From Raphidiopsis brookii D9 (lineage in GTDB: Bacteria > Cyanobacteriota > Cyanobacteriia > Cyanobacteriales > Nostocaceae), in NCBI GenBank assembly GCA_000175855.1, contig ACYB01000040.1, positions 1 through 32,000 on the forward strand: a DNA stretch of 32,000 nucleotides, read 5' to 3'. Numbering within the stretch: position 1 is the first letter of the stretch; every line of letters starts with the position of its first letter. The translations under genes were made by a program, and so were the position numbers. Below are positions 1,223-23,969 of the stretch, one piece after another. The notes beneath the pieces are model-generated. The model was not told the DNA's origin. It saw nothing but the letters and a program-made list of their open reading frames with translations, and ran no database searches.

Positions 1223-1822
1223 TTATCTTATTGTTAGGATAAAACAGATCCGCACTTGGTTTACCTTGGTGAAGGGTGGTTTACCCGCTGCACTCCATTC
1301 CCTATGCTGTATTTGACTATGTGCTTCCCGACCATCAGAATTATAAATATCTGCTTGGATGGGTATTCGCATTAGTTGTCTATCTAAACGAGAAGTTAAA
1401 TCTCCGGTAATTTCTTCCTCTATACCCAGGGGGATATGATGGGGGTGAATCATGGGGATCCAAAAAGATGCGTTTTCACTGGTTGTAGGTGAATTCTGAG
1501 CTAAATATTCTAATTTTTGCCAAAGATAGCGAATTACTATGGCTAATAAGGCTAATAAGCGCAATGCTCCCCTGGTCCTTTGGAAATTAGGAATGGATGC
1601 TATCTTCTTAGTCAGTAGATTAAATAGTTCTGGGTGAAATGGATAGCTCTGAGCACAACTACTATCCTTACATCCACTGGGTAGAACTAAACGACTCTTT
1701 TTATAAACTTCCATATATTCCCCTGCTGCATTGGAACATATACTACTAAACATTCTTTGCTTGACTATATTGTATATCTCTTCAGGTGTAAAAAACCGGT
1801 CCTGTTCTGTGACTGCAATCAT
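1223..1822 (-). pseudogene. Isolated internal fragment of a DUF499-type (BrxC/PglY-like) ATPase gene
   Basis: The 199-aa ORF carries SYPFHPELFNLLTKKIASIPNFQRTRGALRLLA, which I recognise as the central conserved block of ~1000-aa DUF499 ATPases. There is no P-loop N-terminal part and no C-terminal half. Flanks (1046-1222, 1823-1988) are AT-rich and non-coding. Confidence 0.5.
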
Positions 1823-2045
1823 ATTCTAATACTATCCTAACTTTCGCATCTTTTAATTTTAATCTGGTTAAATGCTAAATGATCCCATAGGCGATCGCAG
1901 GTGCATTGTGATTAATTGATGTTCTACGACTAGAACCAGAACAAATGAGAAATAGAAAATAAAAAATAAGGTTGTATTTTCTCGCGGTATGTGTGATACT
2001 CTAATAGTCGTTATCTACGATTACTCTATCAAGTATTCGTACTTT

Positions 2046-3212
2046 ATGAAAACCACTTCCGACTACATAGTTACCAAATATCCACCAAGTAAAATCATGC
2101 AACTAAAATCATTCACGTTGTCGAAGCTACATGCAAAAGTATTTAAATACAAACCTGAATTGTGGCAGAAATACGAGGTAAAAAGCATTCGTACCTTATC
2201 CCTGCTATTTGGTATGGGATTGGGTTTAACCTTTCTTATTACTGCTTGTTCTCCTAATAGTACAAACAATGCGGGAAACAATCAGACTTCATCACCAAAT
2301 GAAGCTGCTAACTCTAGTCAAAGTTCGAGATTAACTAATAGTAGCACAGTAATTCGTATTGGCTACCAAAAAGCTGCAACTGTTCTCTACGCATTAAAGG
2401 CAAAAGGAGAATTAGAGAAAAGTCTGCAGAAATCAGGAGTTTCAGTGACCTGGACTGAATTTCCTGCGGGTCCACCGATGCTAGAAGCGTTAAATGCTGG
2501 GAGTATTGACTTTGGATATACCGGGGAAGCGCCACCAGTTTTTGCTCAAGCTGCAGGTACACCACTTTTATATGTAGCTTATGATCCTTTAGCAACTAAA
2601 GCGGAAGCAATTATTGTTCACAAAGATTCACCCATAAAAAGTGTAGCTGACCTCAAGGGCAAAAAAGTGGCCTTTGCCAAAGGTTCTAATACTAATTACC
2701 TAATAGTCAAAGCATTAGAAAAGGTTGGCTTGAAGTATAGTGATATCAAACCGACCTTCTTACTTCCAGCGGATGCTCGGATAGCATTTGAGGGTAAAAA
2801 TGTGGATGCTTGGGCAATTTGGGATCCTTTTTTAGCCGCAGCACAAAAAGCTACTGATGCAAGAATTCTTACGGATGCAACCGGACTAGCTCCTAATCTT
2901 GGTTATTATTTAGCGGCGAAATCCTTTGTAGATAAAAATCCAGAAGGATTAAAAACTGTTTTACGTGATGTTGATGAAGTTAGCAAGTGGGCTAAAAATA
3001 ATCCTTCGGATGTTGCTAAGTTATTGTCACCTGTTTTGGGTATAGATGTTGGAGTTTTGGAAATATCAGAACGACGACGTGATTATGGGGTGTTACCTTT
3101 AACAGAAGAAGTAATTAACAACCAACAGAAGGTAGCTGATACTTTCTACCAACTTAAATTAATCCCCAAACAAATTAATGTTCGGGAAGTGGTGACCAAG
3201 ATAGATTTTTAG
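2046..3212 (+). CDS. ssuA: Aliphatic sulfonate-type ABC transporter substrate-binding lipoprotein (SsuA family), paralog 1
   Basis: The ORF track starts at 1989; ATG 2046 and ATG 2097 are alternative starts and I cannot choose between them. Lipobox LITAC is followed by an Asn/Ser/Gln-rich linker. SsuA/NMT1-type core FPAGPPMLEALNAGSIDFGYTGEAPPVFAQAAG and C-terminal QQKVADTFYQLKLIPKQINV. Clearly paralogous to 15770-16813. Confidence 0.85.
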   Translation: MKTTSDYIVTKYPPSKIMQLKSFTLSKLHAKVFKYKPELWQKYEVKSIRTLSLLFGMGLGLTFLITACSPNSTNNAGNNQTSSPNEAANSSQSSRLTNSSTVIRIGYQKAATVLYALKAKGELEKSLQKSGVSVTWTEFPAGPPMLEALNAGSIDFGYTGEAPPVFAQAAGTPLLYVAYDPLATKAEAIIVHKDSPIKSVADLKGKKVAFAKGSNTNYLIVKALEKVGLKYSDIKPTFLLPADARIAFEGKNVDAWAIWDPFLAAAQKATDARILTDATGLAPNLGYYLAAKSFVDKNPEGLKTVLRDVDEVSKWAKNNPSDVAKLLSPVLGIDVGVLEISERRRDYGVLPLTEEVINNQQKVADTFYQLKLIPKQINVREVVTKIDF

Positions 3213-3223
3213 ATTTTGGGTTT

Positions 3224-4966
3224 ATGAATTATAGAACTACTCAAACCACTCATCAAACTACTCAATTAGTGAAAACTGATGTACTTGTAATTGGTGGTGG
3301 TACCGCAGGAACAATGGCAGGAATTAAAGCAAAGCAGGTAAACCCAGATGCTGACATTTTAATTTTAGAAAAAGCAAATATTCGCCGCAGCGGTGCAATT
3401 GCTATGGGTATGGACGGGGTGAATACAGCAGTTATTCCCGGAAACTCCACCCCAGAACAATATGTCCGTGAGGTAACTATTGCTAATGATGGTATTTTGC
3501 ACCAAAAAGCAGTTTATCAAACTGCAAAACTAGGCTATGAAACTATTAAGGAATTAGAAAGTTGGGGGGTGAAATTTCAGAAAGATCCCCACGGTAATTA
3601 TGATGTCAAACAAGTACATCGCGTCGGCAAATATGTTTTACCAATGCCAGAGGGCAAAGATTTAAAAACAATTCTCACTCGTCAGGTTAAGCGTCACCAG
3701 GTGAAAGTAATCAACCGGGTTATGGCAACTAGAATATTAGTGGAAGATGGTAAAGCAATTGGTGCAGTTGGATTTGATGTACGCAGTGGAGATTTTGTAG
3801 TTATTCAAGCCAAGGCTGTTGTCCTTTGTACAGGTGCTTGTGGAAGATTAGGGTTACCAGCTTCTGGTTATCTTTATGGGACTTATGAAAATCCCACCAA
3901 TGCTGGAGATGGTTACTCTATGGCTTATCATGCAGGAGCAGAATTAACTAACATTGAATGCTTCCAAATTAACCCACTAATTAAGGATTACAATGGCCCA
4001 GCATGTGCCTATGTAGCAGGACCCTATGGAGCATATACTGCTAATAGTCAAGGAAACCGCTTCATTAATTGTGATTACTGGAGTGGTCAAATGATGTTAG
4101 AGATTTGGAGGGAATTAAACTCTGGGAAAGGTCCAATTCAAATGAAAATGACCCATTTAGATGAGGATACAATTTCTGAAATTGAAAGCATTTTGTGGGC
4201 TAACGAGCGTCCAAGTAGAGGTAGGTTTCATCAAGGCAGAGGAGAAAATTATCGCACTCATGGTGTGGAGATGAATATTTCCGAAATTGGCTTATGTAGT
4301 GGACATAGTGCATCCGGTGTTTGGGTGAATGAAAAAGCGGAAACTACAGTTCCTGGACTTTATGCAGCTGGAGACATGGCCAGTGTTCCACATAATTATA
4401 TGATTGGCGCATTTGTTTTCGGAAGATTGGCTGGAGAAAATGCTATGGAGTACATTCAGAATTTAGAAACCGTAGAACATATAAAACCAGATCCCGATCT
4501 TTTAGAAACTGAAAAAAACCGGATTTATTCACCATTAAATCAACCAAATGGCATTCCCCATACCCAAGTTGAATATAAGTTGCGCCGGCTGATTAACGAT
4601 TACCTACAACCACCAAAATCTGGCAAAAAAATGGAAATTGGGCTAAATCATTTTATTCGTTACCATGAAACACTATCGGAAATGGGAGCACGAGATCCTC
4701 ACGAATTGATGCGCTGTATGGAGGTATATTTTATTCGTGATTGTGCAGAAATGGCAGCACGAGCATCTTTATATCGTCAAGAGAGTCGTTGGGGACTATA
4801 TCATTACCGGTTAGATTATCCCGATCAAAATGATCTTGAATGGCTATGTCATGTTAATTTGAGGAAAACTGAAGGGGGAGAAATGATTTTATTCAAACGT
4901 GCAATTGAACCTTATGTGGTATCTGTTGATTTGTCCAACGAACTTTATGATGTGGCTGTAAAATAG
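3224..4966 (+). CDS. AprA-like FAD flavoprotein (adenylylsulfate reductase alpha-like; FrdA/SdhA superfamily)
   Basis: 580 aa, starting 11 nt after the ssuA stop. N-terminal dinucleotide fold DVLVIGGGTAGTMAG. ILEKANIRRSGAIAMGMDGVNTAV resembles the AprA block ...EKA.IERSGAVAQGLSAINT. Also PGLYAAGDMA and C-terminal RQESRWGLYHYRLDYP. Confidence 0.75.
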   Translation: MNYRTTQTTHQTTQLVKTDVLVIGGGTAGTMAGIKAKQVNPDADILILEKANIRRSGAIAMGMDGVNTAVIPGNSTPEQYVREVTIANDGILHQKAVYQTAKLGYETIKELESWGVKFQKDPHGNYDVKQVHRVGKYVLPMPEGKDLKTILTRQVKRHQVKVINRVMATRILVEDGKAIGAVGFDVRSGDFVVIQAKAVVLCTGACGRLGLPASGYLYGTYENPTNAGDGYSMAYHAGAELTNIECFQINPLIKDYNGPACAYVAGPYGAYTANSQGNRFINCDYWSGQMMLEIWRELNSGKGPIQMKMTHLDEDTISEIESILWANERPSRGRFHQGRGENYRTHGVEMNISEIGLCSGHSASGVWVNEKAETTVPGLYAAGDMASVPHNYMIGAFVFGRLAGENAMEYIQNLETVEHIKPDPDLLETEKNRIYSPLNQPNGIPHTQVEYKLRRLINDYLQPPKSGKKMEIGLNHFIRYHETLSEMGARDPHELMRCMEVYFIRDCAEMAARASLYRQESRWGLYHYRLDYPDQNDLEWLCHVNLRKTEGGEMILFKRAIEPYVVSVDLSNELYDVAVK

Positions 4967-5016
4967 CAGTGTGGTTTCACAGTAAAATAATTTCACTACG
5001 GAGTAATGATAAACCT

Positions 5017-5244
5017 ATGACCTTAATTAATCAAAGAGTAGATGTCCCAGTAATTGTGGATGAATCCAAGTGTCTGGAAAAATGCGTGGCCTGTATTGAG
5101 GTTTGTCCTTTAGATGTGCTGGCTAAAAATCCAGAGACTGGCAAAGCTTACATGAAGTATGATGAATGTTGGTTCTGTCTACCCTGTGAAAAGGAGTGTC
5201 CAACCAATGCTATTACAGTACAAATTCCTTTTTTACTACGGTAG
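5017..5244 (+). CDS. Small 2x[4Fe-4S] ferredoxin, AprB-like
   Basis: The track ORF begins at GTG 4969. ATG 5017 has a GGAG 13-16 nt upstream and gives 75 aa. Cluster motifs are CLEKCVACIEVCP and DECWFCLPCEKECP; the latter closely resembles the AprB motif ECWECYSCVK.CP. Confidence 0.75.
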   Translation: MTLINQRVDVPVIVDESKCLEKCVACIEVCPLDVLAKNPETGKAYMKYDECWFCLPCEKECPTNAITVQIPFLLR

Positions 5245-5253
5245 AGACTCAAA

Positions 5254-6276
5254 ATGTCTACGGATTCTAATTACCAGGTGAATCAGTGGTTGGAGATGTT
5301 GCGATCGCCTGAAGTGGGCGATCGTCTAGTAGCGGTAAAGTCCTTACAGCATCTGGGGGAAGATCTAGCTATAGAAGGTTTAATAACTGCTTTGAAAGAT
5401 GAAAGCACCGCCGTGCAAAAAATTGCAGTATCTGCACTTTGGGAACTGGGTAATCCTCAAGCGGTTCCAGCTTTACTCGAACATCTTGGTGATTGGGATC
5501 CAGAGGTTAGAATCGAAGCTCTATCAGCTTTGGGTGAATTAATAAGTTCCCATCACTTATCGTTGTTGTTGGACGCATTAGGAAAAGAAAATGTTAATCT
5601 TCAGCTTAACATTCTGATTTTGTTGCGTAAGATCCACGATATAGGATCCCTAGATGCTGTATTATCCTTCTTCAATTCTCAACACCCAGAATTGCGAGAG
5701 GCTGCTGTGACTACTTTGCGCTATTTAAATCAAGTGCAAATATGTCCAAAAGCGTTGTCACTACTCAATGACGCTGACAACAACGTGCGACGAGCAACAG
5801 CCATAACTTTAGGATATTTAAAGGATGGAAAAATTCCTGGGTTACTCAGTCAATCAATCAGCCATGATTCCGACTGGCAAGTCCGAAAAAACGCAGCCAT
5901 ATCCCTAGTCAATCATGCTAACTCAGTGGCAGTCTCCACCCTAAAAAATGGCATAACAGATGAAAATTGGCAAGTGCGAAAATCGATCATTCAACTGTTA
6001 CAAAAAGCTCCCCAAATAGAATTATTGCCTTTATTAATTGAGAGTTTAAGGAGTGATCAGTATTCTGATGTCAGAAAAGAAGCAGCTGTAGCACTTAGTC
6101 ACCTAACAATTGGTCATCCAAGTAGTCTTGAAGCTCTGGATGCTCTAAGGACCGGATTAAATGACGAAGACACAGAAGTGCAAATTTGTTGCCAAAAGGC
6201 AATAGAGAAAATTGAATCCAATGTTAAACAACGGTCTACAGCATCTAAACCAGATGTGTCCACCGTTGATGGGTAA
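5254..6276 (+). CDS. HEAT-repeat protein (PBS-lyase/E-Z type HEAT repeats, ~10 repeats)
   Basis: 340 aa, starting 9 nt after the ferredoxin stop. Recurring D..VR..A..AL units: DPEVRIEALSALGEL, HPELREAAVTTLRYL, DNNVRRATAITLGYL, DWQVRKNAAISLVNH, NWQVRKSIIQLLQKA, YSDVRKEAAVALSHL. Confidence 0.8.
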   Translation: MSTDSNYQVNQWLEMLRSPEVGDRLVAVKSLQHLGEDLAIEGLITALKDESTAVQKIAVSALWELGNPQAVPALLEHLGDWDPEVRIEALSALGELISSHHLSLLLDALGKENVNLQLNILILLRKIHDIGSLDAVLSFFNSQHPELREAAVTTLRYLNQVQICPKALSLLNDADNNVRRATAITLGYLKDGKIPGLLSQSISHDSDWQVRKNAAISLVNHANSVAVSTLKNGITDENWQVRKSIIQLLQKAPQIELLPLLIESLRSDQYSDVRKEAAVALSHLTIGHPSSLEALDALRTGLNDEDTEVQICCQKAIEKIESNVKQRSTASKPDVSTVDG

Positions 6277-7042
6277 AACGAAGAACAGCATCTAAAAAGT
6301 AACCAATTAGTCCAATGATCACAATTACTGCTGCCAACTCCGAATATGCCAAGCGATCGCGGGTATCGAGGATAAAATAGCCAAGTCCTGCATTTACTCC
6401 TAGCATTTCTGCAGGTACTAAAACGATCCAAATCACCCCCATAGCAAGGCGAATCCCAGTCAGCAAGTGAGGAATAATGGCAGGGATTATCACCTGACTA
6501 ATTGTTTCCCACTTTGTTGCACATAGACTTTTGGATAGTAGCAACCACTGAGTATCAACGGCAGTGACCCCTGCTGAAGTATTGAGAATTACAGCCCAAA
6601 TAGCAGAAATGCTTAGTAAAAAGTAAACGGGTAAATCCCCAATACCCAAAACCATAACTGCTATGGGCATCCAAGAAAGAGGCGAAATCATACGCACTAA
6701 CTGGAATAAAACGGAGGTTGCCAGATCTAAGGATCGATACATTCCTAAAAAGATACCCATAGGAACGCCTAAACTAATTGCTATTAGTAAACCTACTAAC
6801 ACCCGGCGTAGACTGGCAAATATATGGGGAAAAATGGAGTGGCTATTAAATAATTGAAATAAGGAAACAATGCACCGCTCCAAGGAAAAGTCAACTAGCA
6901 TTAGATCCCGGTGCCATAGGGGAGTAGTGCATATCCACCAAATACTCAAACCGACCATTAGTCCGGATAGGGGTAGGGGAATTTTTTTAACAAGGTGTAG
7001 TTGCAAGGCAATAAGAAACCGGGTGACGATTTTGATGGTCAT
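6245..7042 (-). CDS. ABC transporter permease (NitT/TauT family, SsuC/TauC-like)
   Basis: 265 aa and multi-pass hydrophobic. Conserved loop [44 protein letters not shown]. Its ATG overlaps the upstream stop (ATGA at 7039-7042). Confidence 0.85.
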
Positions 7043-7620
7043 TCAACTTTTCCAACTACTGTGGCTTCAGGAATTTCAATTAACTTTCCAGTCTTTACAT
7101 CATAAATGTAACCATAAATGACAATGTCTTTAGGAACTAGGGGATGATATCTTATCCTTCTAACATCTTCATAAACACTTTTGGCTTGATTGCTTATTGT
7201 TAACCAATTAATGAAATCCCCCTCTTGTGAACCTGGTCCGATACCCACATCATGCCAACCTCTCTCATCTAACTGGGCAGTTTCTAGACTGTTTGCCAAT
7301 AGTTTTCGAATAATTTCATCTGTGAAGGTTTCCATTCCACAATCCGTATGGTGAATAATAAACCATTCACGAGTACCTAAAAGCTTGTAAGAAATCACCA
7401 AAGAGCGAATGGCATCATCACTAGCTCTACCACCAGCATTCCGAATAACATGGGCATCTCCTTCAACCAGACCAGCAAATTTTGCCGGATCAAGGCGAGC
7501 ATCCATGCATGTCAAAATGGCAAATTTACGACCAGGAGGTAGGGGTAAATTTCCCTTATCCCCAAAGATTTCAGTATACTTTTGATTGGCATGAAGAACT
7601 TCTTGAACTAACTGACTCAT
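7039..7620 (-). CDS. Beta-class carbonic anhydrase (Rv1284/COS-hydrolase-like clade)
   Basis: I place the start at ATG 7620 (MSQLVQEVL...), with GAGG upstream; the track ORF extends to 7665. Zinc-site motifs are intact: [11 protein letters not shown] and [38 protein letters not shown] resembles the mycobacterial Rv1284 type. Confidence 0.85.
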
Positions 7621-7671
7621 AAAAAACCTCAATTTTTGACGAAAAGTCGCATCGAATAATATCAAAATAAT

Positions 7672-8922
7672 TTAGATAGCAAAGGTTTCAGAACGCAAAA
7701 GTTCTTTCGGTAATCCAAAAACCTCTGGACCTCCAATCTGTTGTAAAGCAGATTTAACAAAGGAATCATCCACTAAATCTGCAGCCACCTGCTTTGGCTC
7801 TAAGGTTTGCAAAAAGTTTGTTTCCCCTTCTACTTGAGTTTCTCTAAGTAATTCAACTAATTTCTCCGTGTAAGAGGGAAAAGGATAAGGTTGAAAGTCA
7901 ATTCTATTTATTCCCCAATCAGGATGGGTAATTGCTTGTTGATAAAACTTTGAGTCATAGTAGCCAAGGGATCTTTGTAAGGCACCTAGGGGATGGGGTG
8001 TGTACTTGCCTCCATCCTTAGAAAGAATTTTGGCTACTTCTAAGCGATTATTTCTTGCCCAGGATTGTGCTTTAACTATTGCATTAACTACTTTTTGAGT
8101 CCATTCTCGTCTTTGGGTAATATCTTCTTCATGAACAAATACTACACAGCAGGCATGATCTTTCCAAACATCTCCAGTAAACCGCAGAACCTTACCAGTT
8201 TTCAAATTTTCAGCCACTGCATTAAATGGCTCTGCGACTATATATCCTCCAATACTTTTATTAGCTAATGCCGAAACCATATCGGGAGGAGGTAATACAA
8301 CTAAGTTAACCTCGTTACTACCAATAGGAGCATCCTGGGCCTTACGAACCACGCTTAGTCCTTGCTGTTTGAGGATTTGTTGTAAGACTACGTTGTGGAT
8401 GGAATACCAAAACGGAACAGCTATTGTCCTTCCACCTAAATTTTTGGCACTTTCAATCTCTGGTGCCACGGTTAAAGCTGAACCATTGGTATGATTCCAG
8501 GCAATAACTTTTGCCGGAAACTTACGTCCATACCTAATCCAAATGGTAACCGGCATCAGGACATGAATTACATTGATTTGACGCGCTAAAAAAGCTTCCA
8601 CAATTTGTGACCAAGATCGAAATAGCCGTGGCTGTTCGCTAGTTAGTCCTTCCGCTTCATACAGTTTACGAGAGTGTGCAACTAATAGGGGGGCAGCATC
8701 AGTAATAGGTAAGTAACCTACTTTTACGGGCTGATCGTCTGAAAAAACTGGTTTAGTCGTAGATTGTTGAGTATTATTTGGTGGGAAGGACTTTTGCTCA
8801 CAGCCGCCCATACCTATTGTTGCTGTTAATGAAGTGGTGAAAAAACTAGTAAGCTTGAGAAAGTCTCTTCTGTTCATACCGCAGCACAGACAAGTGTAAG
8901 GATTAAAAAATGGTTTATTCAT
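7672..8922 (-). CDS. NrtA/CmpA/CynA-type ABC transporter substrate-binding protein with twin-arginine signal
   Basis: 416 aa. NRRDFLKL Tat motif followed by ...TIGMGGC (possible lipobox). NrtA-type core KVGYLPITDAAPLLVAHSRKLYEAEGL and IAVPFWYSIHNVVLQQILKQQGL. Confidence 0.8.
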   Translation of the reverse strand: MNKPFFNPYTCLCCGMNRRDFLKLTSFFTTSLTATIGMGGCEQKSFPPNNTQQSTTKPVFSDDQPVKVGYLPITDAAPLLVAHSRKLYEAEGLTSEQPRLFRSWSQIVEAFLARQINVIHVLMPVTIWIRYGRKFPAKVIAWNHTNGSALTVAPEIESAKNLGGRTIAVPFWYSIHNVVLQQILKQQGLSVVRKAQDAPIGSNEVNLVVLPPPDMVSALANKSIGGYIVAEPFNAVAENLKTGKVLRFTGDVWKDHACCVVFVHEEDITQRREWTQKVVNAIVKAQSWARNNRLEVAKILSKDGGKYTPHPLGALQRSLGYYDSKFYQQAITHPDWGINRIDFQPYPFPSYTEKLVELLRETQVEGETNFLQTLEPKQVAADLVDDSFVKSALQQIGGPEVFGLPKELLRSETFAI

Positions 8923-8992
8923 ACACTAATTTCAGATGAGTTGAATGTTAATCAATTAGAATTTAGAAGTGACAACACTTAGGAATGACAGG

Positions 8993-9817
8993 TTATTTTC
9001 CCCAATCCATTAAACTTGAAAGTTCCTCGAAAATAGTTAGTCGCATTTCGGCTAAGGTGTGTGCTTCCTTAAAACGGGGTTTCGGTTGCATAATCCGCCA
9101 TTCTCGATCAATTGCCCCCGGATAACGACTCATTAAAAATATGCGATCGCCTAGCAGAAGGGCTTCGTCAATATCATGAGTCACGAGCAAGATTGTACTT
9201 TGATGCTGCTCAATTACCTCTAATAAAAGCTTCTGCATTTCTAGTCGGTTAATGGCATCAAGTCCGCTAAAAGGCTCATCCAGCAACAATAGTTTGGGTT
9301 GACGAGCAAGCGCACGTCCTAAAGCTACTCGCTGTGCCATACCTCCAGATAACTGATGAGGATACGCTTGTTCAAATTTATCTAGGTTAACACTAGTAAT
9401 TGCTAAGTTAATACGCGATTCTAGTTCAGCTTTGGATAAAGAGTCCATCCGGGTGAATTGTAATCCAAAACCAATATTTTGCCTAACACTCAACCAGGGA
9501 AGTAATGCCGCCTGCTGAAAGACTAAACCAATTTGGGGGTGCGGGGAAGTCAGGGGACGACCCTCTAAATAAATTTGTCCTTTATTGGCAGATTTTAAAC
9601 CGGCGATCGCCATTAGCAGTGAAGACTTTCCACATCCACTGGCACCTAAAAGACATACCACTTCTCGATGACAAACATCTAAATTGATATTGGCAAAAGC
9701 AGTATAAGTCCCTCGACGAGTCTTATAATTCATCTGTAAACCTTCTACTTTCAGCAGAGGCTCACTTCCTACAGAGGTTAGTCTTGACCTAGTGACAGTT
9801 GTATGGTAATCCATCAC
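8993..9817 (-). CDS. ABC transporter ATP-binding protein (NitT/TauT family)
   Basis: Walker A GASGCGKSS, signature LSGGMAQRV, Walker B LLLLDEPFSGLD, H-loop VTHD. The start overlaps the upstream gene end by 29 nt. Confidence 0.9.
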   Translation of the reverse strand: MMDYHTTVTRSRLTSVGSEPLLKVEGLQMNYKTRRGTYTAFANINLDVCHREVVCLLGASGCGKSSLLMAIAGLKSANKGQIYLEGRPLTSPHPQIGLVFQQAALLPWLSVRQNIGFGLQFTRMDSLSKAELESRINLAITSVNLDKFEQAYPHQLSGGMAQRVALGRALARQPKLLLLDEPFSGLDAINRLEMQKLLLEVIEQHQSTILLVTHDIDEALLLGDRIFLMSRYPGAIDREWRIMQPKPRFKEAHTLAEMRLTIFEELSSLMDWGK

Positions 9818-10889
9818 TTTTTTCCTTAACCAATCTGTGTCGATACAATTCAGTTTCTAATTGAACCAAGCTAGGGGTTAACACAGGTAAAAATGCCACC
9901 TCTCTTAGTCGTCGAGCTGTGCCGCTCGGTTTCAAATATCCAGTACCTCCTTTGGCCTCTAATTCCATTTGAACCACTTCAACTGCTAAACGGGTTAATT
10001 TAACTCGTACTTCAAATAGCTGACGCATTTGTGTCAAAGTAAAGGCTGATAAGTTGCTCAAATAGGAAATATGATTTTCCAGATTTGACAATGTTGCTGT
10101 ACTAGCTCCTAATCGTGAGGCTAACACCTCCCGGTTATTGGTATTTATACTTTGCCTAGTTTCTTTCAGAGATCTCCGTGCCATACCCAGAGCTAATCCA
10201 CATTGCATTAGCAAAAATGCGGGACGAATTTTGGGTAAGAATTCTGCCCCATTGTCACTAATAATCCAAGAATGGCAAAGCTGCACATTATTGAATTTCA
10301 GGCTACTTGTCCAGGATGCCTGTAACCCAAGTAGCTGTAGATCCTCTCCCCGATTTAATCCAGAGATGTCAGCAGGAACTGCAATTACCATGGACTTCCC
10401 ACAGTCGGTTTGCCCTGCAACTGCAATCACAAATTTTTCCGGACGTAGATTGGAGGCCCAGGGCAAAAAACCGTTGATAGTCACATTTTCGTTATCGATC
10501 TCGACTTGTAGCCGCAGTTTTTCAATCCCTGCCAGATATTTCATCGCATTAGACAGACCAGTAGCACCTGATAACTCTCCTTTGAGTACCATGGGCAAAA
10601 TTTCTGACTGGAGGTAATGGTTACCACTAGCAGATAGATATTCCATAAATGCTCTTTGGCACCAAAACACAAAACCACTGGTAAGACATTGTTCAGAAAC
10701 ACTGGCGATCGCCTCTACCACATCTGATAAACCACCCCCGGAACCACCTAAAGAAGAAGATAGTCCCAATGCTAAGTAACCCGATCGTGCCAGGGTAATC
10801 AGAGACTTATCAATACTGAATCCATTTAATCCATCATTAAAGTATCCGGCACATTCAGATAATTGCAGTGTTGAATCTTGGAGGAGCAT
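9789..10889 (-). CDS. Acyl-CoA dehydrogenase-fold protein, probably a flavin-dependent monooxygenase of the MsuC/SfnB/DszC type
   Basis: Start placed at ATG 10889 (MLLQDSTLQ...), 10 nt after the upstream stop; the track ORF reaches 10934. Length and layout match ACADs, including ELSGATGLSNAMKY and a C-terminal four-helix region. It lacks the YEGT/catalytic-Glu region of true ACADs and has GGTGYLKPSGTARRLREVAF instead. Confidence 0.7.
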   Translation of the reverse strand: MLLQDSTLQLSECAGYFNDGLNGFSIDKSLITLARSGYLALGLSSSLGGSGGGLSDVVEAIASVSEQCLTSGFVFWCQRAFMEYLSASGNHYLQSEILPMVLKGELSGATGLSNAMKYLAGIEKLRLQVEIDNENVTINGFLPWASNLRPEKFVIAVAGQTDCGKSMVIAVPADISGLNRGEDLQLLGLQASWTSSLKFNNVQLCHSWIISDNGAEFLPKIRPAFLLMQCGLALGMARRSLKETRQSINTNNREVLASRLGASTATLSNLENHISYLSNLSAFTLTQMRQLFEVRVKLTRLAVEVVQMELEAKGGTGYLKPSGTARRLREVAFLPVLTPSLVQLETELYRHRLVKEKSDGLPYNCH

Positions 10890-10899
10890 AAAACTTTCC

Positions 10900-11427
10900 T
10901 CAGTGTAGATTACGGATGGAAGTAAGAGCATCAATGGGCGCGCCTAGGATTTCCCGGGCCTGCTTAACAGTAGACTCATCAGGGCTTTCATATAAACATA
11001 AGCACTTACTTAAGTCTTCACAAACATAAGTACGTTCAAATTTTACCTGTGGCACCTGAGCGTAGAGAGGCGACTTTTCTGCTTTTCGCTGCAAGTAACC
11101 CTCCATGGTCAACCCAGCTGGTAAATTCCACTCTACTAAGTAGTTGGCATTGTGTTTGCGTGCCTTCAAAGTTGTTAAATCCTGTCCCAGGAGACGTACT
11201 GGCTTAACTGTAGTAGTAGCTAACCCACCTGCTTCAAAACTTTTTTGGGCGATCGCCGGTTCAAGGGCATCAATCACCACAAACAGTCGTTGCAAATCTT
11301 CTCCTACCTGGGCCTCGATTAATTCTGCACCAAAGTTGATTGCAGCAGTAGCAATGACATCCAGGGACTGTCCGATCTTTTCCGCTTGCAGTTCCGTAAT
11401 AAATCCCTCAATTAAGTACAGTGACAT
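10900..11427 (-). CDS. DUF4242-like protein (SCO4226 nickel-binding-protein family), possibly two tandem domains
   Basis: 175 aa. The second half, YLVEWNLPAGLTMEGY...VKFERTYVCEDLSKCLCLYESPDESTVKQAREILGAPIDAL, fits the DUF4242 pattern as I remember it. The first half is weaker. Confidence 0.45.
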   Translation of the reverse strand: MSLYLIEGFITELQAEKIGQSLDVIATAAINFGAELIEAQVGEDLQRLFVVIDALEPAIAQKSFEAGGLATTTVKPVRLLGQDLTTLKARKHNANYLVEWNLPAGLTMEGYLQRKAEKSPLYAQVPQVKFERTYVCEDLSKCLCLYESPDESTVKQAREILGAPIDALTSIRNLH

Positions 11428-11698
11428 TTCATCTAAACCTCACAGAAGTCAGTGAACCACCAGTTAAAGCCTGGTGAAGAAACAATAGTTACTACACTAC
11501 ATTTATACTACTGTTACTTGGTAGGTTTATTGTAGTTATATAAATCATACAGGGCAAAGATAAAAAAAGCAACAAAGTTAGATTTTTTAAACAAAAAAAT
11601 AGGCTTATTTAGATAACAAGAATTTCATTTCCAAATACGCCTATATTTTTTAATGAGGATGGTAAAGAGTAAAAATAGACCCTAAAGTTGAAGGAGGC

Positions 11699-12301
11699 TC
11701 AGGAAACCACAGCAGCCACATTTTGGAAGTAGACTGGCTCATTTCCCAATCGCCACTTGATGTTACAACCAATGCTAGGCTTCTGGTTATGACTCACCTG
11801 GTGACCAGCTAAAATAGCTGTAATGGCAGCTCGTAAATCTTTGCCAGTTACGGGGATACCATTTTGAGGACGACTATCATCTAACTGTCCACGGTAGATA
11901 AGCTTCCGTTCAGCATCAAACAAAAAGAAATCAGGGGTACAAGCAGCAAAAAAGTCCTTTGCGGTTTTTTGTGTTTCATCAAAAAGCACAGGATAAGCCA
12001 GATCTAATTCCTGGGCAAAAGCCTTCAAAAATTCTGGTGCATCATCGGGATGACTACTAATATCATTAGCACTAATAGCCAGGATTCCCAAATTACTTTC
12101 TAGATAATCTTTTCCTAACTGGGCCAATTCAAACTTAATGTGTTGCACAAAGGGACAGTGGCGACTCAAGAATATGACTAGTAAAGCTCTTTTATCGGCA
12201 AAGTCAGCCAGGGAAAATGACTTACCAGAAACCACATCTGGTAAGTAAAAATTCGGAGCTAAGGTGCCCAAAGGTAACATTGTCGAAGCAGTTTTGACCA
12301 T
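11699..12301 (-). CDS. Thioredoxin-fold, peroxiredoxin-like protein (PRX_like1 type, single active-site Cys)
   Basis: Start placed at ATG 12301 (MVKTASTMLPLG...), which removes the overlap with tauD; the track ORF reaches 12388. AhpC/TSA-like LAPNFYLPDV...ALLVIFLSRHCPFVQH. Confidence 0.65.
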   Translation of the reverse strand: MVKTASTMLPLGTLAPNFYLPDVVSGKSFSLADFADKRALLVIFLSRHCPFVQHIKFELAQLGKDYLESNLGILAISANDISSHPDDAPEFLKAFAQELDLAYPVLFDETQKTAKDFFAACTPDFFLFDAERKLIYRGQLDDSRPQNGIPVTGKDLRAAITAILAGHQVSHNQKPSIGCNIKWRLGNEPVYFQNVAAVVS

Positions 12302-12344
12302 AAAACATGTATCCTTGAAATAATTGACGCAAATCTGACGTAAA

Positions 12345-13262
12345 TCAAACACCCACAGGTACACGCTTATTATAATAAATAGAGGCATCCCCTTTCACGG
12401 CTTGACTTTTTTGACCATTAACACTAACGGGTACATCACCTACAATAGTAACTCTCTGAACCCGACGAGGCTGATTACCATAATCTGCTATGGCATAGTG
12501 TTGGGTAGCGCGATTATCCCAAAATGCCACATCACCCACTTTCCAACGCCAACGGACTGTATTTTCTGGGCGCGTTACATAGGACTGCAACAATTGAATA
12601 ATATGATCTGACTCCGTTGTAGATAGTCCCCTAATCTGTCTGACGAAACCACCGATAAATAATCCTTTTTCCCCAGACTCAGGATGAACACGTACTACTG
12701 GATGTAAAGTTTCATACACAGTTGAGGTAAAAACTTCTCGATAAGCCTTGAGATCCTCGGAAAGATTGACTGCAGCTTCGGCATAGTCATAGGCATTGCT
12801 GTGAACTGCCCATAGCTCATCAGCAAGTTGACGCAGGTGTTCTGGTAAGTCGCGATATGCTGTTACGGAATTGCCCCAAATAGTATCACCACCATAAGCC
12901 GGAATTTCTAAGGCCCGCAAAATAGAACCCAGAGGAGGACGGTCCACAAATGTGACATCAGTATGCCAATTGTTTGCACGAGCAGCTGTTTTCCCATAGT
13001 CCAAATCTAATATTTCTGGGTGACCTGTTAAAGATGGAACTGTAGGATGAGCTGTTGTAATTTCTCCAAATCGACGGGCAAAATCGATTTGATTCTCAGC
13101 ACTAAGATGTTGATTACGGAAAAAGATTACTTTATATTCAACAAGGGCACGACGAATTTCACTAATAATTGCATCACTGAGATTTTCTTGCAAATCAATT
13201 TCTAAGATCTTGGCACCGATACGTCCAGCAATTGGCTTAATCTTTAAGTATTGATAAGTCAT
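12345..13262 (-). CDS. tauD: TauD/TfdA-family Fe(II)/2-oxoglutarate dioxygenase (taurine/alkyl-sulfonate or sulfate-ester dioxygenase)
   Basis: 305 aa. Facial-triad region NNWHTDVTFVDRPPLGSILRALEIPAYGGDTIW, distal WAVHS, and FWDNRATQHYA. Substrate cannot be assigned from sequence. Confidence 0.9.
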   Translation of the reverse strand: MTYQYLKIKPIAGRIGAKILEIDLQENLSDAIISEIRRALVEYKVIFFRNQHLSAENQIDFARRFGEITTAHPTVPSLTGHPEILDLDYGKTAARANNWHTDVTFVDRPPLGSILRALEIPAYGGDTIWGNSVTAYRDLPEHLRQLADELWAVHSNAYDYAEAAVNLSEDLKAYREVFTSTVYETLHPVVRVHPESGEKGLFIGGFVRQIRGLSTTESDHIIQLLQSYVTRPENTVRWRWKVGDVAFWDNRATQHYAIADYGNQPRRVQRVTIVGDVPVSVNGQKSQAVKGDASIYYNKRVPVGV

Positions 13263-16904: not shown

Positions 16905-18713
16905 ATGCAACAAGGTCATAATTCCGATGCAGAAGATTCTTCCCCACATCATGAGAATAACAAGAAGGGGAAACGCCTTAATTCTAACCTGGGTATAAAT
17001 AGACGTTCATTTATTGGTCGTGGCGGTCTTGCCGGAGGCTTTCTCATCGGTATAACAGGTGCATCCTTGATTGAGAACGGCAAAACAAGTGTTGTTCAAG
17101 CTCAGAACACGGCAATTAAGGGTAAATACCCCAAGTTATTAGAGAAAACCTACAATATACGTGTATCAGCAGCGAAAGCAAATCGAGAAACTCCTGTTCC
17201 CCCCCAACCAACAAATGGTGATGAGGATCTCTATCCTAACAAAATAGGTTCTGATTCAAGAGGTTTGCCCCATAATAATTTGGGTGAAGTCGACCTCAAG
17301 GCTTATGAAACCTTAACCAAAGCGATAAGAACTCATAATCATGATGATTTTGAAAATGTTATTTTGGGTGGTACAAGGAAATTGGTTAATGCTCAGGCTC
17401 CTCTAGCTGTCAGTTTAGAAGGGACTAGCCCGTTACAAGTATCAGTTCCACCACCACCTAACTTAACAAGTCCAGAAAGAGCTCATGAAGCAATTGAGCT
17501 TTATTGGCAAGCTTTACTACGAGATATCCCTTTCCACAAACTGCAAAATAACACTGATGATCCTCTGGTTTTAGCTGCGGTTGAGGAACTAAATCAACTC
17601 TCTAATTTTAAAGGTCCCAAGGAAAATGGACGTGTGACCCCCCAAAGTCTATTTCGTGGTAGTGTTACCTATGTTGACAAAAATGATCGGTCTGGAAAGA
17701 CTTCAAAACACGTTACCCCACCGGGAGTACTTATTGGACCTCATATCTCCCAATTTGCACTGCTAAATATACCTTGGGGAGTCCAATATGTTCCACCTGT
17801 AATTCGCACCACTGTGTCGGGCAATGACTTTCTGACTGATTATGAGGAATGGTTAAATGTACAGAATGGTGGTACCCCAAAACAGTCCACTTTTGATCCG
17901 ATCCGCCGTTACATTTCTACTATTCGTGACCTGTCAGAGTTTTCCCATACCCCCGGCGCTTCATTTTATGGTGCCTCTTTAATTCTTGCTACCACCAGAA
18001 ATGCTAAAGATCCCCTGAGTGGAGGGATTGGTGCACCCTTTAATCCGGGCAATCCATTCGTCAAATCAAAAACTCAACAGGGTGGTAATGGTTCTTTTGC
18101 TGTTGGACACCTACAAGCTTTATTAAGCTTGAGTACATCCCGTGCCATCAGGGTAGCATATTGGCAAAAATATTATGTACACCGCATACTGCGTCCTGAA
18201 GCATATAGTGGGTTAGTCCACCACAATATTCTCAATAGAACTCAATATCCAGTTCATAGAGCTATCTTGAATTCTAAAGCTCTGGCTAGGAGTTTTAGCA
18301 AGTTTGGTTCTTATTTGTTACCCCATGGATATCCTGAAGGATCACCTATTCATTCATCTTATGTTGGTGGTGCAGCTGCGATCGCAGGTGCAAATGTCAC
18401 CATTCTCAAGGCATATTTTGATGAGAATTTTGTCATTCCCAATCCCGTAATTCCCGATCCAAATGACCCAACTAAAGTTATTCCCTATAACGGAGATCCC
18501 TTAACCATAGGTGGTGAGTTGAATAAGCTAGCTACAAATTATGCTCTCGGTCGCGGACATGGTGGTATTCACTGGCGTACGGACGGTTCTGCTGGACTGG
18601 CTTTAGGAGAAGAAGTTGCTATTGCCATTCTTAAGGATGAGTCCTTGGGTTACAATGAGAAGTTTGCGGGCTTTACCTTCACCAAATTTGATGGCACTAA
18701 GGTTACGGTTTAA
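16905..18713 (+). CDS. Tat-exported vanadium-haloperoxidase/PAP2-superfamily-like protein
   Basis: 602 aa. Tat motif NRRSFIGRGGLAG. PAP2/VHPO motif 1 WQKYYVHRILRPE (K-x7-RP) and motif 3 GRGHGGIHWRTD (R-x5-H-x3-D). Motif 2 reads HSSYVGGAAA where HPSYPSGHA is expected. Confidence 0.7.
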   Translation: MQQGHNSDAEDSSPHHENNKKGKRLNSNLGINRRSFIGRGGLAGGFLIGITGASLIENGKTSVVQAQNTAIKGKYPKLLEKTYNIRVSAAKANRETPVPPQPTNGDEDLYPNKIGSDSRGLPHNNLGEVDLKAYETLTKAIRTHNHDDFENVILGGTRKLVNAQAPLAVSLEGTSPLQVSVPPPPNLTSPERAHEAIELYWQALLRDIPFHKLQNNTDDPLVLAAVEELNQLSNFKGPKENGRVTPQSLFRGSVTYVDKNDRSGKTSKHVTPPGVLIGPHISQFALLNIPWGVQYVPPVIRTTVSGNDFLTDYEEWLNVQNGGTPKQSTFDPIRRYISTIRDLSEFSHTPGASFYGASLILATTRNAKDPLSGGIGAPFNPGNPFVKSKTQQGGNGSFAVGHLQALLSLSTSRAIRVAYWQKYYVHRILRPEAYSGLVHHNILNRTQYPVHRAILNSKALARSFSKFGSYLLPHGYPEGSPIHSSYVGGAAAIAGANVTILKAYFDENFVIPNPVIPDPNDPTKVIPYNGDPLTIGGELNKLATNYALGRGHGGIHWRTDGSAGLALGEEVAIAILKDESLGYNEKFAGFTFTKFDGTKVTV

Positions 18714-18806
18714 TAGTTGACTTCAAATTCAACTTGATCAATTAGGAATATGGGGAATATACTTTTCTCATATTCCGGCAATTTAATAAACCATAGTAAA
18801 CATATA

Positions 18807-19634
18807 ATGAATATGACTAGTGCTAATCAATTACTAAATCATCGGTATGGGAATGGCAATTTTAATTCGGATGTACCTTGGAATGATACTTTGGAGACCT
18901 TGCTATCCCATCGGTCAATTCGTGGGTATCTAGGAAATAGTTTGCCCTCGGGCACCTTAGAAATTTTAATTGCTGCAGCTCAATCAGCATCCACATCCTC
19001 TAATCTCCAAACCTGGAGCGTTATAGCAGTGGAAAATACGGACCGTAAACAACAATTGTCCCAACTGGCTAATAATCAACCCCACATTCGTCAGTGTCCT
19101 TTATTTCTAGTCTGGTTAGCGGATTTAGCTAGACTAGCACATATCGCTGAAGAGCGGGGACTACCCCATGAAGGATTGGACTATCTGGAAATGTTCCTTA
19201 TGGCTGCTCTGGATACCGCCTTGGCAGCACAAAATGCTGTTGTAGCAGCAGAATCCTTAGGATTAGGAACCGTTTACATTGGTGCATTAAGAAATAACCC
19301 TCTGGAAGTGGCACGTTTACTCAATTTGCCTTCCCATGTTGTGGCTGTATTTGGTTTGTGTGTTGGCTATGCTGATCCAGTTATAAATGTGGATATAAAA
19401 CCTCGTTTGCCTCAATCTGTGGTCTTACACAGAGAAAACTATCAACTACAAACCCAAAATGAAGGAATTGCTCGGTATAATCAAGTGATGGAAGAATTTT
19501 ATAGTTCACAAAATATGAATGTTCCGGGTGATTGGTCAGAACATTCTAGCAAAAGAGTTGCCAATGCCAATTCTTTAACCGGTAGACAAAACCTACGGGA
19601 AATTCTCACAAAACTTGGATTTCAACTGCGCTGA
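18807..19634 (+). CDS. NfsA/Frp-family NADPH-dependent flavin oxidoreductase (nitroreductase fold)
   Basis: Start placed at ATG 18807 (MNMTSANQ...); the track ORF starts at 18750. It aligns by eye along its length with E. coli NfsA: LLSHRSIRGY, AAQSASTSSNLQ, AAQNAVVAAESLGLGTVYIGALRNN, LFGLCVGY..D.KPRLP. Confidence 0.85.
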   Translation: MNMTSANQLLNHRYGNGNFNSDVPWNDTLETLLSHRSIRGYLGNSLPSGTLEILIAAAQSASTSSNLQTWSVIAVENTDRKQQLSQLANNQPHIRQCPLFLVWLADLARLAHIAEERGLPHEGLDYLEMFLMAALDTALAAQNAVVAAESLGLGTVYIGALRNNPLEVARLLNLPSHVVAVFGLCVGYADPVINVDIKPRLPQSVVLHRENYQLQTQNEGIARYNQVMEEFYSSQNMNVPGDWSEHSSKRVANANSLTGRQNLREILTKLGFQLR

Positions 19635-19665
19635 GAATGGTGACCCAATCCTCAACCATTTTTTC
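19634..19665 (+). terminator. Putative intrinsic terminator in the 29-nt convergent gap
   Basis: agaatggt (19634-19641) pairs with accatttt (19655-19662): 8 bp including one G-U, with a 13-nt loop. It runs into a T7 tract at 19659-19665. Confidence 0.4.
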
Positions 19666-20617: not shown

Positions 20618-20678
20618 GACAAATTATTCCTAAATACTTGATAGTTAACAAAGTCTTAATGAGCCATATTTTAGTATC

Positions 20679-20999
20679 TTAATTTATTATTAGATACGTA
20701 GAGTCCTGGTTAGAAGTGTTCCTCTGCAACTCTGTCCAACCAATATTTTTTCTGTAACTGCCTAAAAGTGCTGCTTCTTCCAGAAATTTTTCATCTATTT
20801 GTGCCAAAGGATCCACCTCTGGTGCAACGTATAGTGCATCTACTGGACAGTATAACTCACACATGAAACAAGTTTGACAGTCATTTTGTCTAGCTATTAT
20901 TGGAGGTCCATTTACTACTTTATCAAACACATTGGTTGGACAAACTTTGACACAAATATTACATTTAATACACCTGGATTCACTGACTAGTTCAATCAT
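20679..20999 (-). CDS. 2x[4Fe-4S] dicluster ferredoxin
   Basis: 106 aa, with CIKCNICVKVCP and CQTCFMCELYCP. Confidence 0.8.
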   Translation of the reverse strand: MIELVSESRCIKCNICVKVCPTNVFDKVVNGPPIIARQNDCQTCFMCELYCPVDALYVAPEVDPLAQIDEKFLEEAALLGSYRKNIGWTELQRNTSNQDSTYLIIN

Positions 21000-21108
21000 G
21001 ATTTGTTAGTAGGTTTTGACAATAGATAGGATCATTAGTAGAATCATTATTTGAGGTGGAGCAGAAATAACTCCACCAGAAGCTTGCTTATACTGAATTC
21101 AAACCATA

Positions 21109-22743: not shown

Positions 22744-22821
22744 GATTATTGTCTCCCAAATTGTAGTATGAACTGCGATAAAAATGTAGTAAAAACTATC
22801 AGCAAAAAACTTTGATCCTAA

Positions 22822-23865: not shown

Positions 23866-23969
23866 GTTACTAAATTATCCTCGTTACAAGAAAATAACTA
23901 AATTATCTGCAAATTCCACAAGCAGCTTTAAAATGCTTTTGTAGTTCATAACAAAAATCTAATAAACGA

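Follow-up and report, generated by a model that had tools for sequence, protein, structure and literature searches.

The present work concerns a four-gene operon of the cyanobacterium Raphidiopsis brookii D9, found at positions 2046 to 6276 of a stretch of 32,000 nucleotides (contig ACYB01000040.1, positions 1 to 32,000), which is referred to here as the window. The operon combines an SsuA-type lipoprotein with a flavoprotein, a very small ferredoxin and a protein built of HEAT repeats. The flavoprotein and the ferredoxin resemble AprA and AprB, the two subunits of adenylylsulfate (APS) reductase. Together with the recurrence of the same neighbourhood in other genomes, this makes it probable that the module is a conserved, uncharacterised iron-sulfur (Fe-S) flavoenzyme, which derives from AprAB and is functionally coupled to uptake of the SsuA/TauA type. 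The four genes are as follows.

2046-3212, + strand: ssuA, an SsuA-family aliphatic-sulfonate ATP-binding cassette (ABC) substrate-binding lipoprotein, 388 residues from ATG 2046
3224-4966, + strand: flavoprotein of the family PRK08275 (NF006131), 580 residues, with flavin adenine dinucleotide (FAD); AprA-like catalytic subunit
5017-5244 (4969-5244 from GTG), + strand: 2x[4Fe-4S] ferredoxin, 75 residues; equivalent of the AprB core
5254-6276, + strand: HEAT protein with about ten PBS-type repeats, 340 residues; candidate partner subunit

The coordinates, the common direction and the gaps of 11, 50 (2 from GTG 4969) and 9 nucleotides agree with the preliminary description of this DNA. The motifs that it quoted, ILEKANIRRSGAIAMGMDGVNT, RQESRWGLYHYRLDYP and DECWFCLPCEKECP, are present in the translations, and its family calls for all four proteins were upheld by profile searches. 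The gene ssuA has an alternative upstream ATG at 1989, and the lipobox of its translation reads LITAC. The ferredoxin likely starts at ATG 5017, because orthologous ferredoxins have 75 residues wherever a gene call existed. In NCBIfam, SsuA scores 244 bits with TIGR01728 (SsuA_fam), above the cut-off of 163.5, and 297 bits with PRK11553 against a cut-off of 299; its orthologues, at 59-74% identity, lie directly upstream of the flavoprotein gene in Nostocales and Oscillatoriales. Promoter and terminator scans of positions 1700-6700 gave a signal no better than that of shuffled sequence.

The flavoprotein is a full member of PRK08275 (994.4 bits against the NCBIfam cut-off of 587), a family named 'fumarate reductase/succinate dehydrogenase flavoprotein subunit', for which no studied member was found. 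Its Pfam domains are FAD_binding_2 and Succ_DH_flav_C, and it corresponds to the first 570 of the 898 positions of PRK13800, which models a fusion of flavoprotein and HEAT. The cut-offs of the related families are not reached, either for aprA (TIGR02061, 200.8 bits against 641.75), PRK06854 (NF005331, 320.6 against 557), the SdhA and FrdA models (161-180 against 567-826) or NadB (TIGR00551, 121 against 452.75), and the TfrA model also stays far below its own. The best sequence match in the PDB is 8a8o_A, the alpha subunit of the AprAB-type reductase of 3'-phosphoadenosine 5'-phosphosulfate (PAPS) from Methanothermococcus thermolithotrophicus (E 5e-70), followed by AprA of Archaeoglobus fulgidus (1jnr_A, 6e-47) and by SdhA and FrdA of E. 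coli (about 1e-22 to 1e-24). An AlphaFold2 model of the flavoprotein (mean predicted local distance difference test, pLDDT, 88.7; predicted template modelling score, pTM, 0.91) gives the same neighbours in Foldseek, with template modelling (TM) scores of 0.88/0.92 for 8a8o_A (root-mean-square deviation 2.4, 28% identity in the structural alignment) and 0.89/0.80 for 1jnr_A, and with FrdA behind at 0.81.

In a neighbour-joining tree, which was built with no bootstrap and no bona fide AprA sequence, the PRK08275 family and a sister group from anaerobes adjoin the clade of PAPS reductase-like (PAPSR-like) sequences, with E. coli SdhA, FrdA and NadB outside. The AprA/AprB-like character of the pair, as first put forward, thus stands with regard to fold and nearest kin, and the flavoprotein branches outside the succinate dehydrogenase, fumarate reductase (SDH/FRD) and NadB enzymes. 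The DiSCo paper discusses 'AprAB-like' proteins from Clostridia, Negativicutes, Deltaproteobacteria, Nitrospira and Archaeoglobi (PMC8477390); from this taxonomy and their tail-less AprB-like subunit, we infer that they represent the PRK06854 clade and not the PRK08275 family.

The active site was compared using HMMER (phmmer) coordinates and match lines to 1jnr_A and 1jnr_B, together with a family alignment, and the roles of the A. fulgidus residues follow Meyer and Kuever 2008 (PMC2211403). On the flavin side, Asn-A74 at the re-face of the FAD is identical (N67), Leu-A70 has the similar M63, and Trp-A234, also at the re-face, is conservatively changed to Y221. Likewise, His-A446 is kept as H390, and Phe-A448 has the similar Y392. 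The flavoprotein also has H361 in an invariant S/G-G-H motif. Both the PAPSR-like clade and 8a8o_A show G-G-H at this place, which lies in a region that phmmer leaves unaligned to 1jnr_A; H361 is probably the equivalent of His-A398. On the nucleotide side, the invariant Arg-A265 has become L252. This Leu is invariant in the PRK08275 family, and Arg occupies the position in every PAPSR-like representative, as it does in true PRK06854 members (P0146 and P0160, 674-805 bits). In the nucleotide channel, Tyr-A95, Glu-A141, Trp-A144 and Gln-A145 are changed to E83, V134, Y137 and V138, and Val-A273, Gly-A274 and Leu-A278 to the flavoprotein residues A260, C261 and A265, with the position of Arg-A317 unmapped. 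Gln-A145 has been discussed for the discrimination of APS and PAPS by Jespersen et al. (PMC10322725). Because the nucleotide-side residues are replaced, the substrate should be neither APS nor PAPS, and the hydrophobic exchanges in the former channel would suit a substrate that is small and not a nucleotide.

When aligned by MAFFT with SdhA, FrdA and NadB of E. coli, the flavoprotein has G57, N250, V264, A265, S287, I355 and S387 at the positions of SdhA H45, H242, T254, E255, R286, H354 and R399. With Gly at the His45 position, the FAD is predicted to be bound non-covalently. By these residues, the flavoprotein appears to fall outside both the SDH/FRD/NadB enzymes and the APS and PAPS reductases, and to have retained the flavin environment and the electron inlet of AprAB.

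This inlet is found in the ferredoxin, a protein of the dicluster Fer4 type (Pfam matches include Fer4_7 and Fer4_10) that counts the AprB structures 3gyx_B, 8a8o_C and 1jnr_B among its PDB matches. Residues 14-69 align without a gap onto residues 10-65 of 1jnr_B, and this brings W52 to the exact position of Trp-B48, which relays electrons to the FAD in A. fulgidus AprAB (PMC2211403). The ferredoxin does not reach the aprB cut-off (TIGR02060, 35 bits against 135.65). With 75 residues against the 150 of 1jnr_B, it represents the ferredoxin core only, without the beta-sheet and the C-terminal tail, and it is 88-99% identical among cyanobacteria. The preliminary description had called the pair dissimilatory in type and had considered the oxidation of sulfite to APS. 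The first label has to be given up and the second idea is unlikely, given the scores below the aprA, aprB and PRK06854 cut-offs, the missing AprB tail and the replacement of Arg-A265 and the mapped channel positions. Of the APS- and sulfite-site residues on which that description laid weight, the flavin-side Asn-A74 and His-A446 are kept, and Arg-A265 and the mapped nucleotide-channel positions are not.

The HEAT protein (HEAT_2, 145 bits) consists of about ten 31-residue repeats and matches positions 612-896, the C-terminal part, of the PRK13800 fusion model. In Streptomyces, the HEAT part is commonly fused to the C-terminus of the flavoprotein; one such protein of 925 residues (P0122) scores 1585 bits on PRK13800. 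The fused gene directly follows those of the ferredoxin and the ABC importer, and the fused sequences examined are at least 84% identical. This fusion, and the presence of the gene in 76 of the 80 loci considered below, point to the HEAT protein as a physical partner of the flavoprotein. Its conserved positions are those of the repeat structure only, with no conserved Cys or His, and its best PDB matches are consensus alphaRep repeats. The resemblance to NblB suggested earlier reduces to a generic similarity of PBS-type HEAT proteins (70.5 bits against a cut-off of 300), and the CpcF and CpcE models are also missed (51 against 220, and 45 against 330). A metal enzyme like deoxyhypusine hydroxylase was considered and ruled out, as there is no conserved Cys, His or Glu beyond the scaffold.

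A scan of one genome per species found a relative of the flavoprotein in at least 586 genomes. Neighbours were counted by tblastn of reference proteins at the best 80 loci of these, with few misses, mostly on truncated contigs. The 80 loci belong to cyanobacteria of the Nostocales, Oscillatoriales, Leptolyngbya-like and Pseudanabaena groups, to two Prochlorococcus single-cell genomes at 72-73% identity, and, at 62-66% identity, to methanotrophs, Paraburkholderia, Herbaspirillum, Pseudomonas, Acinetobacter, Verrucomicrobia and Polyangiaceae. Further hosts, known from records of plasmids and other replicons, are rhizobia, Cupriavidus, Ralstonia and A. baumannii; the sulfur-regulated plasmid pANL of Synechococcus elongatus is not among the plasmid matches listed (40 of 57). 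The ferredoxin gene accompanies the flavoprotein in 78/80 loci, the HEAT gene in 76/80, an SsuA-type or a long SsuA/TauA-like binding protein in 75/80, and an ApbC/Mrp-type Fe-S carrier or a DUF971 protein in 59/80. The neighbourhood of ssuA, flavoprotein, ferredoxin and HEAT genes is therefore strongly conserved, and because the arrangement recurs across phyla, it lies far beyond chance. The central idea of the preliminary description, an uncharacterised sulfur-handling module, survives.

The neighbourhood has two layouts. In Nostocales and Oscillatoriales, a short SsuA lies directly upstream of the flavoprotein, as in the window. Elsewhere, the module is accompanied by a complete ABC importer with a binding protein of 470-508 residues, whose best matches, all below cut-off, are the SsuA_fam and taurine-binding models, and which has a weakly NosL-like C-terminus. 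The usual proteobacterial order is a GntR/UTRA regulator, flavoprotein, ferredoxin, binding protein, permease, ATPase, HEAT and DUF971. In non-heterocystous cyanobacteria, there is a divergent LysR regulator with a fused domain that resembles a binding protein, and often a putative sulfate exporter of the YeiH family or TauE. The ApbC/Mrp carrier is made of a DUF59 domain and a NUBPL-type ATPase. A complete operon of UTRA/GntR, flavoprotein, ferredoxin, binding protein, permease, ATPase, HEAT and DUF971 genes is present in a clinical A. baumannii record (CM018764.1, 33148-40359), where it adjoins chrA and a TSUP (TauE-like) transporter gene; the annotation of its binding protein as 'nitrate ABC transporter' is probably misleading. 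Both Prochlorococcus genomes (L050, L051) have the importer with the long binding protein, the YeiH-type exporter and the LysR regulator with its binding-protein domain, and L050, whose contig reaches far enough, also has the Mrp gene.

The sister group in the tree comes from Desulfobacterales, Bathyarchaeota and Heimdallarchaeota. There, the flavoprotein and a ferredoxin of 64-66 residues have TctABC or NhaC-type transporters next to them and lack a neighbouring HEAT gene. The existence of such a clade in strict anaerobes without the HEAT gene suggests that the chemistry is independent of oxygen, and that HEAT and Mrp are adaptations to aerobic life. Since the HEAT protein co-occurs with ApbC/Mrp or DUF971 and is absent from the anaerobe sister group, it may serve the loading or the protection of clusters in oxygen-exposed cells. 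In the oxygen-exposed lineages, the stabilising or loading of the clusters is probably the task of HEAT together with the Fe-S factor. The pairing of HEAT with ApbC/DUF971 resembles the logic of cytosolic Fe-S targeting in eukaryotes, in which MMS19, itself a HEAT protein, works with a DUF59 protein and an NBP35-type ATPase.

The surroundings of the module connect it to sulfur. All 32 kb together form an island of sulfur-spared proteins for sulfur scavenging, with genes for TauD, an SfnB/acyl-CoA-dehydrogenase-like protein, a second SsuA, an NfsA-like reductase, a pair of formylglycine-generating enzyme (FGE) and sulfatase, glutathione S-transferases (GSTs), SsuB and a second ABC system. Many of the window proteins are extremely poor in Cys+Met (0.2-1.5%), with SsuA at 1.3%. 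NCBIfam scans of all open reading frames (ORFs) of at least 110 residues, and tblastn with a Paraburkholderia luciferase-like (LLM) monooxygenase, confirmed that the window has no SsuD or luciferase-like gene. This absence had been read as the lack of the expected partner of SsuA; it stands, yet a desulfonating TauD is present in the window and had been overlooked, along with the SfnB-like gene and the FGE and sulfatase pair.

Elsewhere among the 80 loci, TauD is found in 8-9 and LLM monooxygenases in 11-13. In six loci (L069, L072, L076, L081, L082 and L087), from Acinetobacter, Paraburkholderia, a betaproteobacterial metagenome-assembled genome and a Polyangiaceae genome, a SrpI family-2A encapsulin, a long cysteine desulfurase and a hexapeptide CysE-like acyltransferase are encoded at most 10 kb from the flavoprotein. 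The SrpI system is induced by sulfur starvation in Synechococcus, and the supplements of the same paper list no FAD_binding_2 or HEAT neighbours (PMC8049743). An SrpI encapsulin beside the module links two poorly understood systems of sulfur starvation. Sulfur sparing extends to the proteobacterial loci, where the HEAT and binding proteins have 0.9-1.1% Cys+Met against 2.7% in a background of other ORFs, some of them spurious, and the adjacent LLM monooxygenases have 1.1%.

Our preferred reading, which we hold tentatively and as less than probable, is that the module is an enzyme that draws on ferredoxin to release sulfite from a sulfo-compound taken up by the cell. It would be a cytoplasmic Fe-S flavoenzyme built as the alpha-beta unit of AprAB. 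The substrate would be a small sulfo-compound, an aliphatic sulfonate or a sulfate ester, delivered by the SsuA/TauA-type importer. Electrons would pass one at a time through the two [4Fe-4S] clusters and W52 of the minimal ferredoxin and reduce the FAD. The N5 of the reduced flavin would then attack the sulfur of the imported compound, a non-nucleotide leaving group would depart, and the resulting N5-sulfite adduct would give sulfite, assisted by the His and the Asn as in AprA. The HEAT protein would be the third component, either as a structural subunit or as a maturation partner, with an ApbC/Mrp or DUF971 protein alongside it in most genomes as a dedicated factor for Fe-S delivery. Chemically, plain alkanesulfonates would be harder substrates than sulfate esters, S-sulfonates or activated sulfonates. 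The sulfate-ester binding protein AtsR of Pseudomonas is also a relative of SsuA, so the importer family does not decide between sulfonate and sulfate ester. The analysis establishes the architecture, the placement in the family, the pattern of residues, the conserved synteny and the ties to sulfur-starvation genes and composition; the direction in which electrons flow, the class of substrate, sulfite as product and the role of HEAT belong to the proposal.

A bolder form of this reading, which we regard as speculative and somewhat doubtful, would make the module a new class of enzyme, a ferredoxin-dependent and oxygen-independent 'sulfo-group reductase'. In imported sulfonates or sulfate esters, it would cleave the C-S or O-S bond at the flavin N5 and yield sulfite directly. 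It would bypass both the O2-dependent SsuD and TauD and the ATP-dependent activation of sulfate, with HEAT and ApbC/DUF971 loading or shielding the clusters, in hosts ranging from Nostoc and Prochlorococcus to Acinetobacter baumannii and Streptomyces.

Several points weigh against the release of sulfite from an imported sulfo-compound. Chemically, attack of the flavin N5 on a sulfonate needs a carbanion as leaving group, which is hard; this favours sulfate esters or activated sulfonates, yet the binding protein here is SsuA-like. By the alignment, the loss of Arg-A265 would remove the cationic residue that polarises the sulfo group in AprA, and as the alignment held no bona fide AprA sequence, the positions of His-A398, Asp-A361 and Arg-A317 were not rigorously placed. 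In composition, the flavoprotein is itself not sulfur-spared, a caveat already raised in the preliminary description and confirmed by the counts (5.2% Cys+Met against 1.3-1.5% in SsuA and HEAT and 0.2-0.6% in several neighbours), nor are the cyanobacterial long binding proteins (2.4%). In marine Prochlorococcus and other cyanobacteria, the module stands beside a putative sulfate exporter, and how it would serve sulfur scavenging in Prochlorococcus, which lives in sulfate-rich seawater, is not evident. An allophanate-hydrolase-like amidase (NF006043, 539 bits in L034) lies near the module in 11 loci (L050, L051, L021, L026, L034, L040, L041, L044, L064, L071 and L073) and could point to the recovery of nitrogen or carbon instead. 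The GntR/HutC-type regulators of the proteobacterial loci suggest induction by substrate rather than sulfur control of the CysB type. Finally, a literature search of incomplete coverage found no paper, experiment or expression data on the PRK08275/PRK13800 family, and papers on sulfur-source omics of Gordonia and Rhodococcus do not mention it.

Among the other explanations, the one that survives best, although we consider it unlikely, is that of a carbon-skeleton oxidoreductase acting in the manner of SDH/FRD, TcuA, or urocanate or acrylate reductase. The enzyme would introduce or remove a double bond in the carbon chain of an organic anion brought in by the importer, whether or not this anion is sulfonated (an example would be 3-sulfopropanoate, a succinate analogue), and any sulfite would be released spontaneously or by another enzyme. 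Such a role would suit the fumarate-reductase superfamily fold, the loss of Arg-A265, the GntR/HutC regulators typical of catabolic operons, and the organic-anion transporters (TctABC and NhaC type) beside the anaerobe sister clade. However, H242, T254, E255, R286, H354 and R399 of SdhA/FrdA/NadB are all replaced, and the nearest kin by sequence, structure and tree are sulfur-acting enzymes of the AprA type. The electron partner is a low-potential dicluster ferredoxin and not of the SdhB type, and the minimal operon has no conserved second enzyme that would release the sulfur.

The oxidation or detoxification of sulfite is improbable. It would be the reverse AprA reaction with water replacing adenosine monophosphate (AMP) as the nucleophile, the electrons passing to ferredoxin and the sulfate leaving through YeiH/TauE-type carriers. 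This would agree with the retention of Asn-A74 and of the His residues near N5 together with the loss of the AMP contacts, and the potential of the sulfate/sulfite couple is sufficiently low for the reduction of ferredoxin. Exporters are nevertheless found in a minority of loci only (YeiH in 12-14, TauE in 4), and such an oxidation would be counter-productive in sulfur-scavenging islands such as the window. It would also leave unexplained an importer with an SsuA/TauA-like binding protein in 75/80 loci, while no desulfonating enzyme is constant.

Also improbable in our judgement is an amine dehydrogenase resembling L-aspartate oxidase, which would convert an amino-sulfonate or -sulfinate (taurine, cysteate or cysteine sulfinate) to ammonia and a keto-sulfo compound that loses sulfite. 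The module is nearer to AprA than to NadB, the NadB model gives 121 bits against 453 and its substrate residues are replaced, and oxidases need no dicluster ferredoxin; these facts stand against the membership of NadB in the same superfamily, the isosterism of cysteate and cysteine sulfinate with aspartate, and the occurrence of the module in nitrogen-limited marine Prochlorococcus and near amidases in 11 loci. A genuine assimilatory APS/PAPS reductase of the AprAB type is very improbable: although the best solved homologue is that of M. thermolithotrophicus (PMC10322725) and an assimilatory role has been put forward for AprAB-like pairs of Clostridia and others (PMC8477390), the proteins fall below the PRK06854, aprA and aprB cut-offs and form a separate clade, Arg-A265 is Leu, the mapped nucleotide-channel positions are substituted, the annotated recurrent neighbour clusters contain no sat, cysC or qmo, and the constant partner is an importer of the organosulfonate type.

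Beyond the operon, the window contains further genes, among them the following.

6245-9817, - strand: convergent neighbouring operon with, by family matches, an ABC permease, a beta-carbonic-anhydrase-like protein, an NMT1_2-type binding protein and an ATPase
9789-10934: SfnB/acyl-CoA-dehydrogenase-like gene
12345-13262, - strand: TauD, with 0 Cys and 1 Met
18750-19634: NfsA-like nitroreductase

The convergent operon at 6245-9817 is not shown to belong to the module; its 416-residue binding protein is not orthologous to the long binding protein of the module and has few matches among the 80 loci. The beta-carbonic-anhydrase-like gene lies at 7039-7665, within this importer operon. Hydrolases of carbonyl sulfide (COS) and carbon disulfide (CS2) are relatives of beta-carbonic anhydrases, and the gene and its importer could be another device for acquiring sulfur. 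'Sao' names for the neighbouring transporter were dropped, being weak NCBIfam matches below cut-off that refer to a selenoprotein-associated system. At 10900-13262 on the - strand, TauD is followed by a thioredoxin-like (ResA-like) ORF and an SCO4226-like protein with a nickel-responsive domain (10900-11427), upstream of the SfnB-like gene.

The window also holds a second AprAB-style pair of FAD protein and ferredoxin. A flavoprotein of the fumarate-reductase superfamily, 544 residues long (21109-22743, - strand), is followed by its own 2x[4Fe-4S] ferredoxin of 106 residues (20679-20999), in an apparent operon (19664-25190 region) that also encodes an aldo-keto reductase, a GST-like protein and a 2-hydroxyacid dehydrogenase. 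The tree places this pair apart from both PRK08275 and the PAPSR-like clade. The second ssuA and the NfsA-like nitroreductase gene enclose the gene of a 602-residue protein (16905-18713, + strand), which has the Tat (twin-arginine translocation) signal RRSFIGRGG, 1 Met and 0 Cys, and no Pfam or NCBIfam match; motifs resembling those of PAP2 and vanadium haloperoxidases (KYYVHRILRP, GRGHGGIHWRTD) were recognised by eye. At 1223-1822 on the - strand, an ORF of 199 residues matches weakly (26 bits) an internal part of the 1025-position model of the anti-phage-associated DUF499 protein; it is probably what is left of a gene at the island's edge.

The known aerobic routes from organosulfonates to sulfite use the oxygenases SsuD, TauD and MsuD, and the anaerobic ones use glycyl-radical enzymes or lyases. 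If the preferred reading is true, an AprAB-derived Fe-S flavoenzyme for an imported sulfo-compound would be a new branch of the sulfur cycle. It would explain the use of sulfonates by many cyanobacteria that have ssuA and lack ssuD, and would give a function to the conserved pairing of a HEAT-repeat protein with ApbC/DUF971. It would also correct a widespread misannotation, as hundreds of species-level genomes name the gene "succinate dehydrogenase/fumarate reductase flavoprotein". The operon is present in genetically tractable hosts, namely A. baumannii, rhizobia, Paraburkholderia and Streptomyces.

In comparison with known systems, the module most closely approaches the AprAB-type PAPS reductase (8A8O), which belongs to the PRK06854 clade. 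In both, an FAD alpha subunit of the fumarate-reductase fold is joined by a short beta subunit, a dicluster ferredoxin that lacks the long tail of AprB, and both have the flavin-side Asn, the His of the G-G-H motif and the electron-transfer Trp. Unlike the PAPS reductase, the module belongs to a separate clade and hidden Markov model family, has Leu at the position of Arg-A265, and is accompanied by HEAT, Fe-S delivery and SsuA-type importer genes instead of sat and cysC. With dissimilatory AprAB (1JNR and 2FJA of A. fulgidus, 3GYX of D. gigas), it shares the fold, Asn-A74, His-A446, Trp-B48 and, by prediction, the non-covalent FAD. It differs in a flavoprotein without the capping-domain insertions (580 against 643 residues), in a ferredoxin of 75 against 150 residues with neither the AprB beta-sheet nor the tail, in the replaced Arg-A265 and mapped channel positions, in having no Qmo or AprM partner, and in its hosts, which are aerobes and oxygenic phototrophs. 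The SDH/FRD flavoproteins, after which the databases currently name it, have in common with it the superfamily fold and the domains FAD_binding_2 and Succ_DH_flav_C; however, the His45 of covalent FAD and the catalytic residues are replaced in the module, its partner is a 2x[4Fe-4S] ferredoxin and not SdhB/FrdB, and there are no membrane anchors. As in ssuEADCB of E. coli, an SsuA-family binding protein heads an operon in a sulfur-scavenging context, but here SsuD and SsuE genes are missing, and ssuA is followed by the Fe-S flavoprotein, the ferredoxin and the HEAT protein. The module is thus an architecture of the AprAB type whose active site, partners and context differ.

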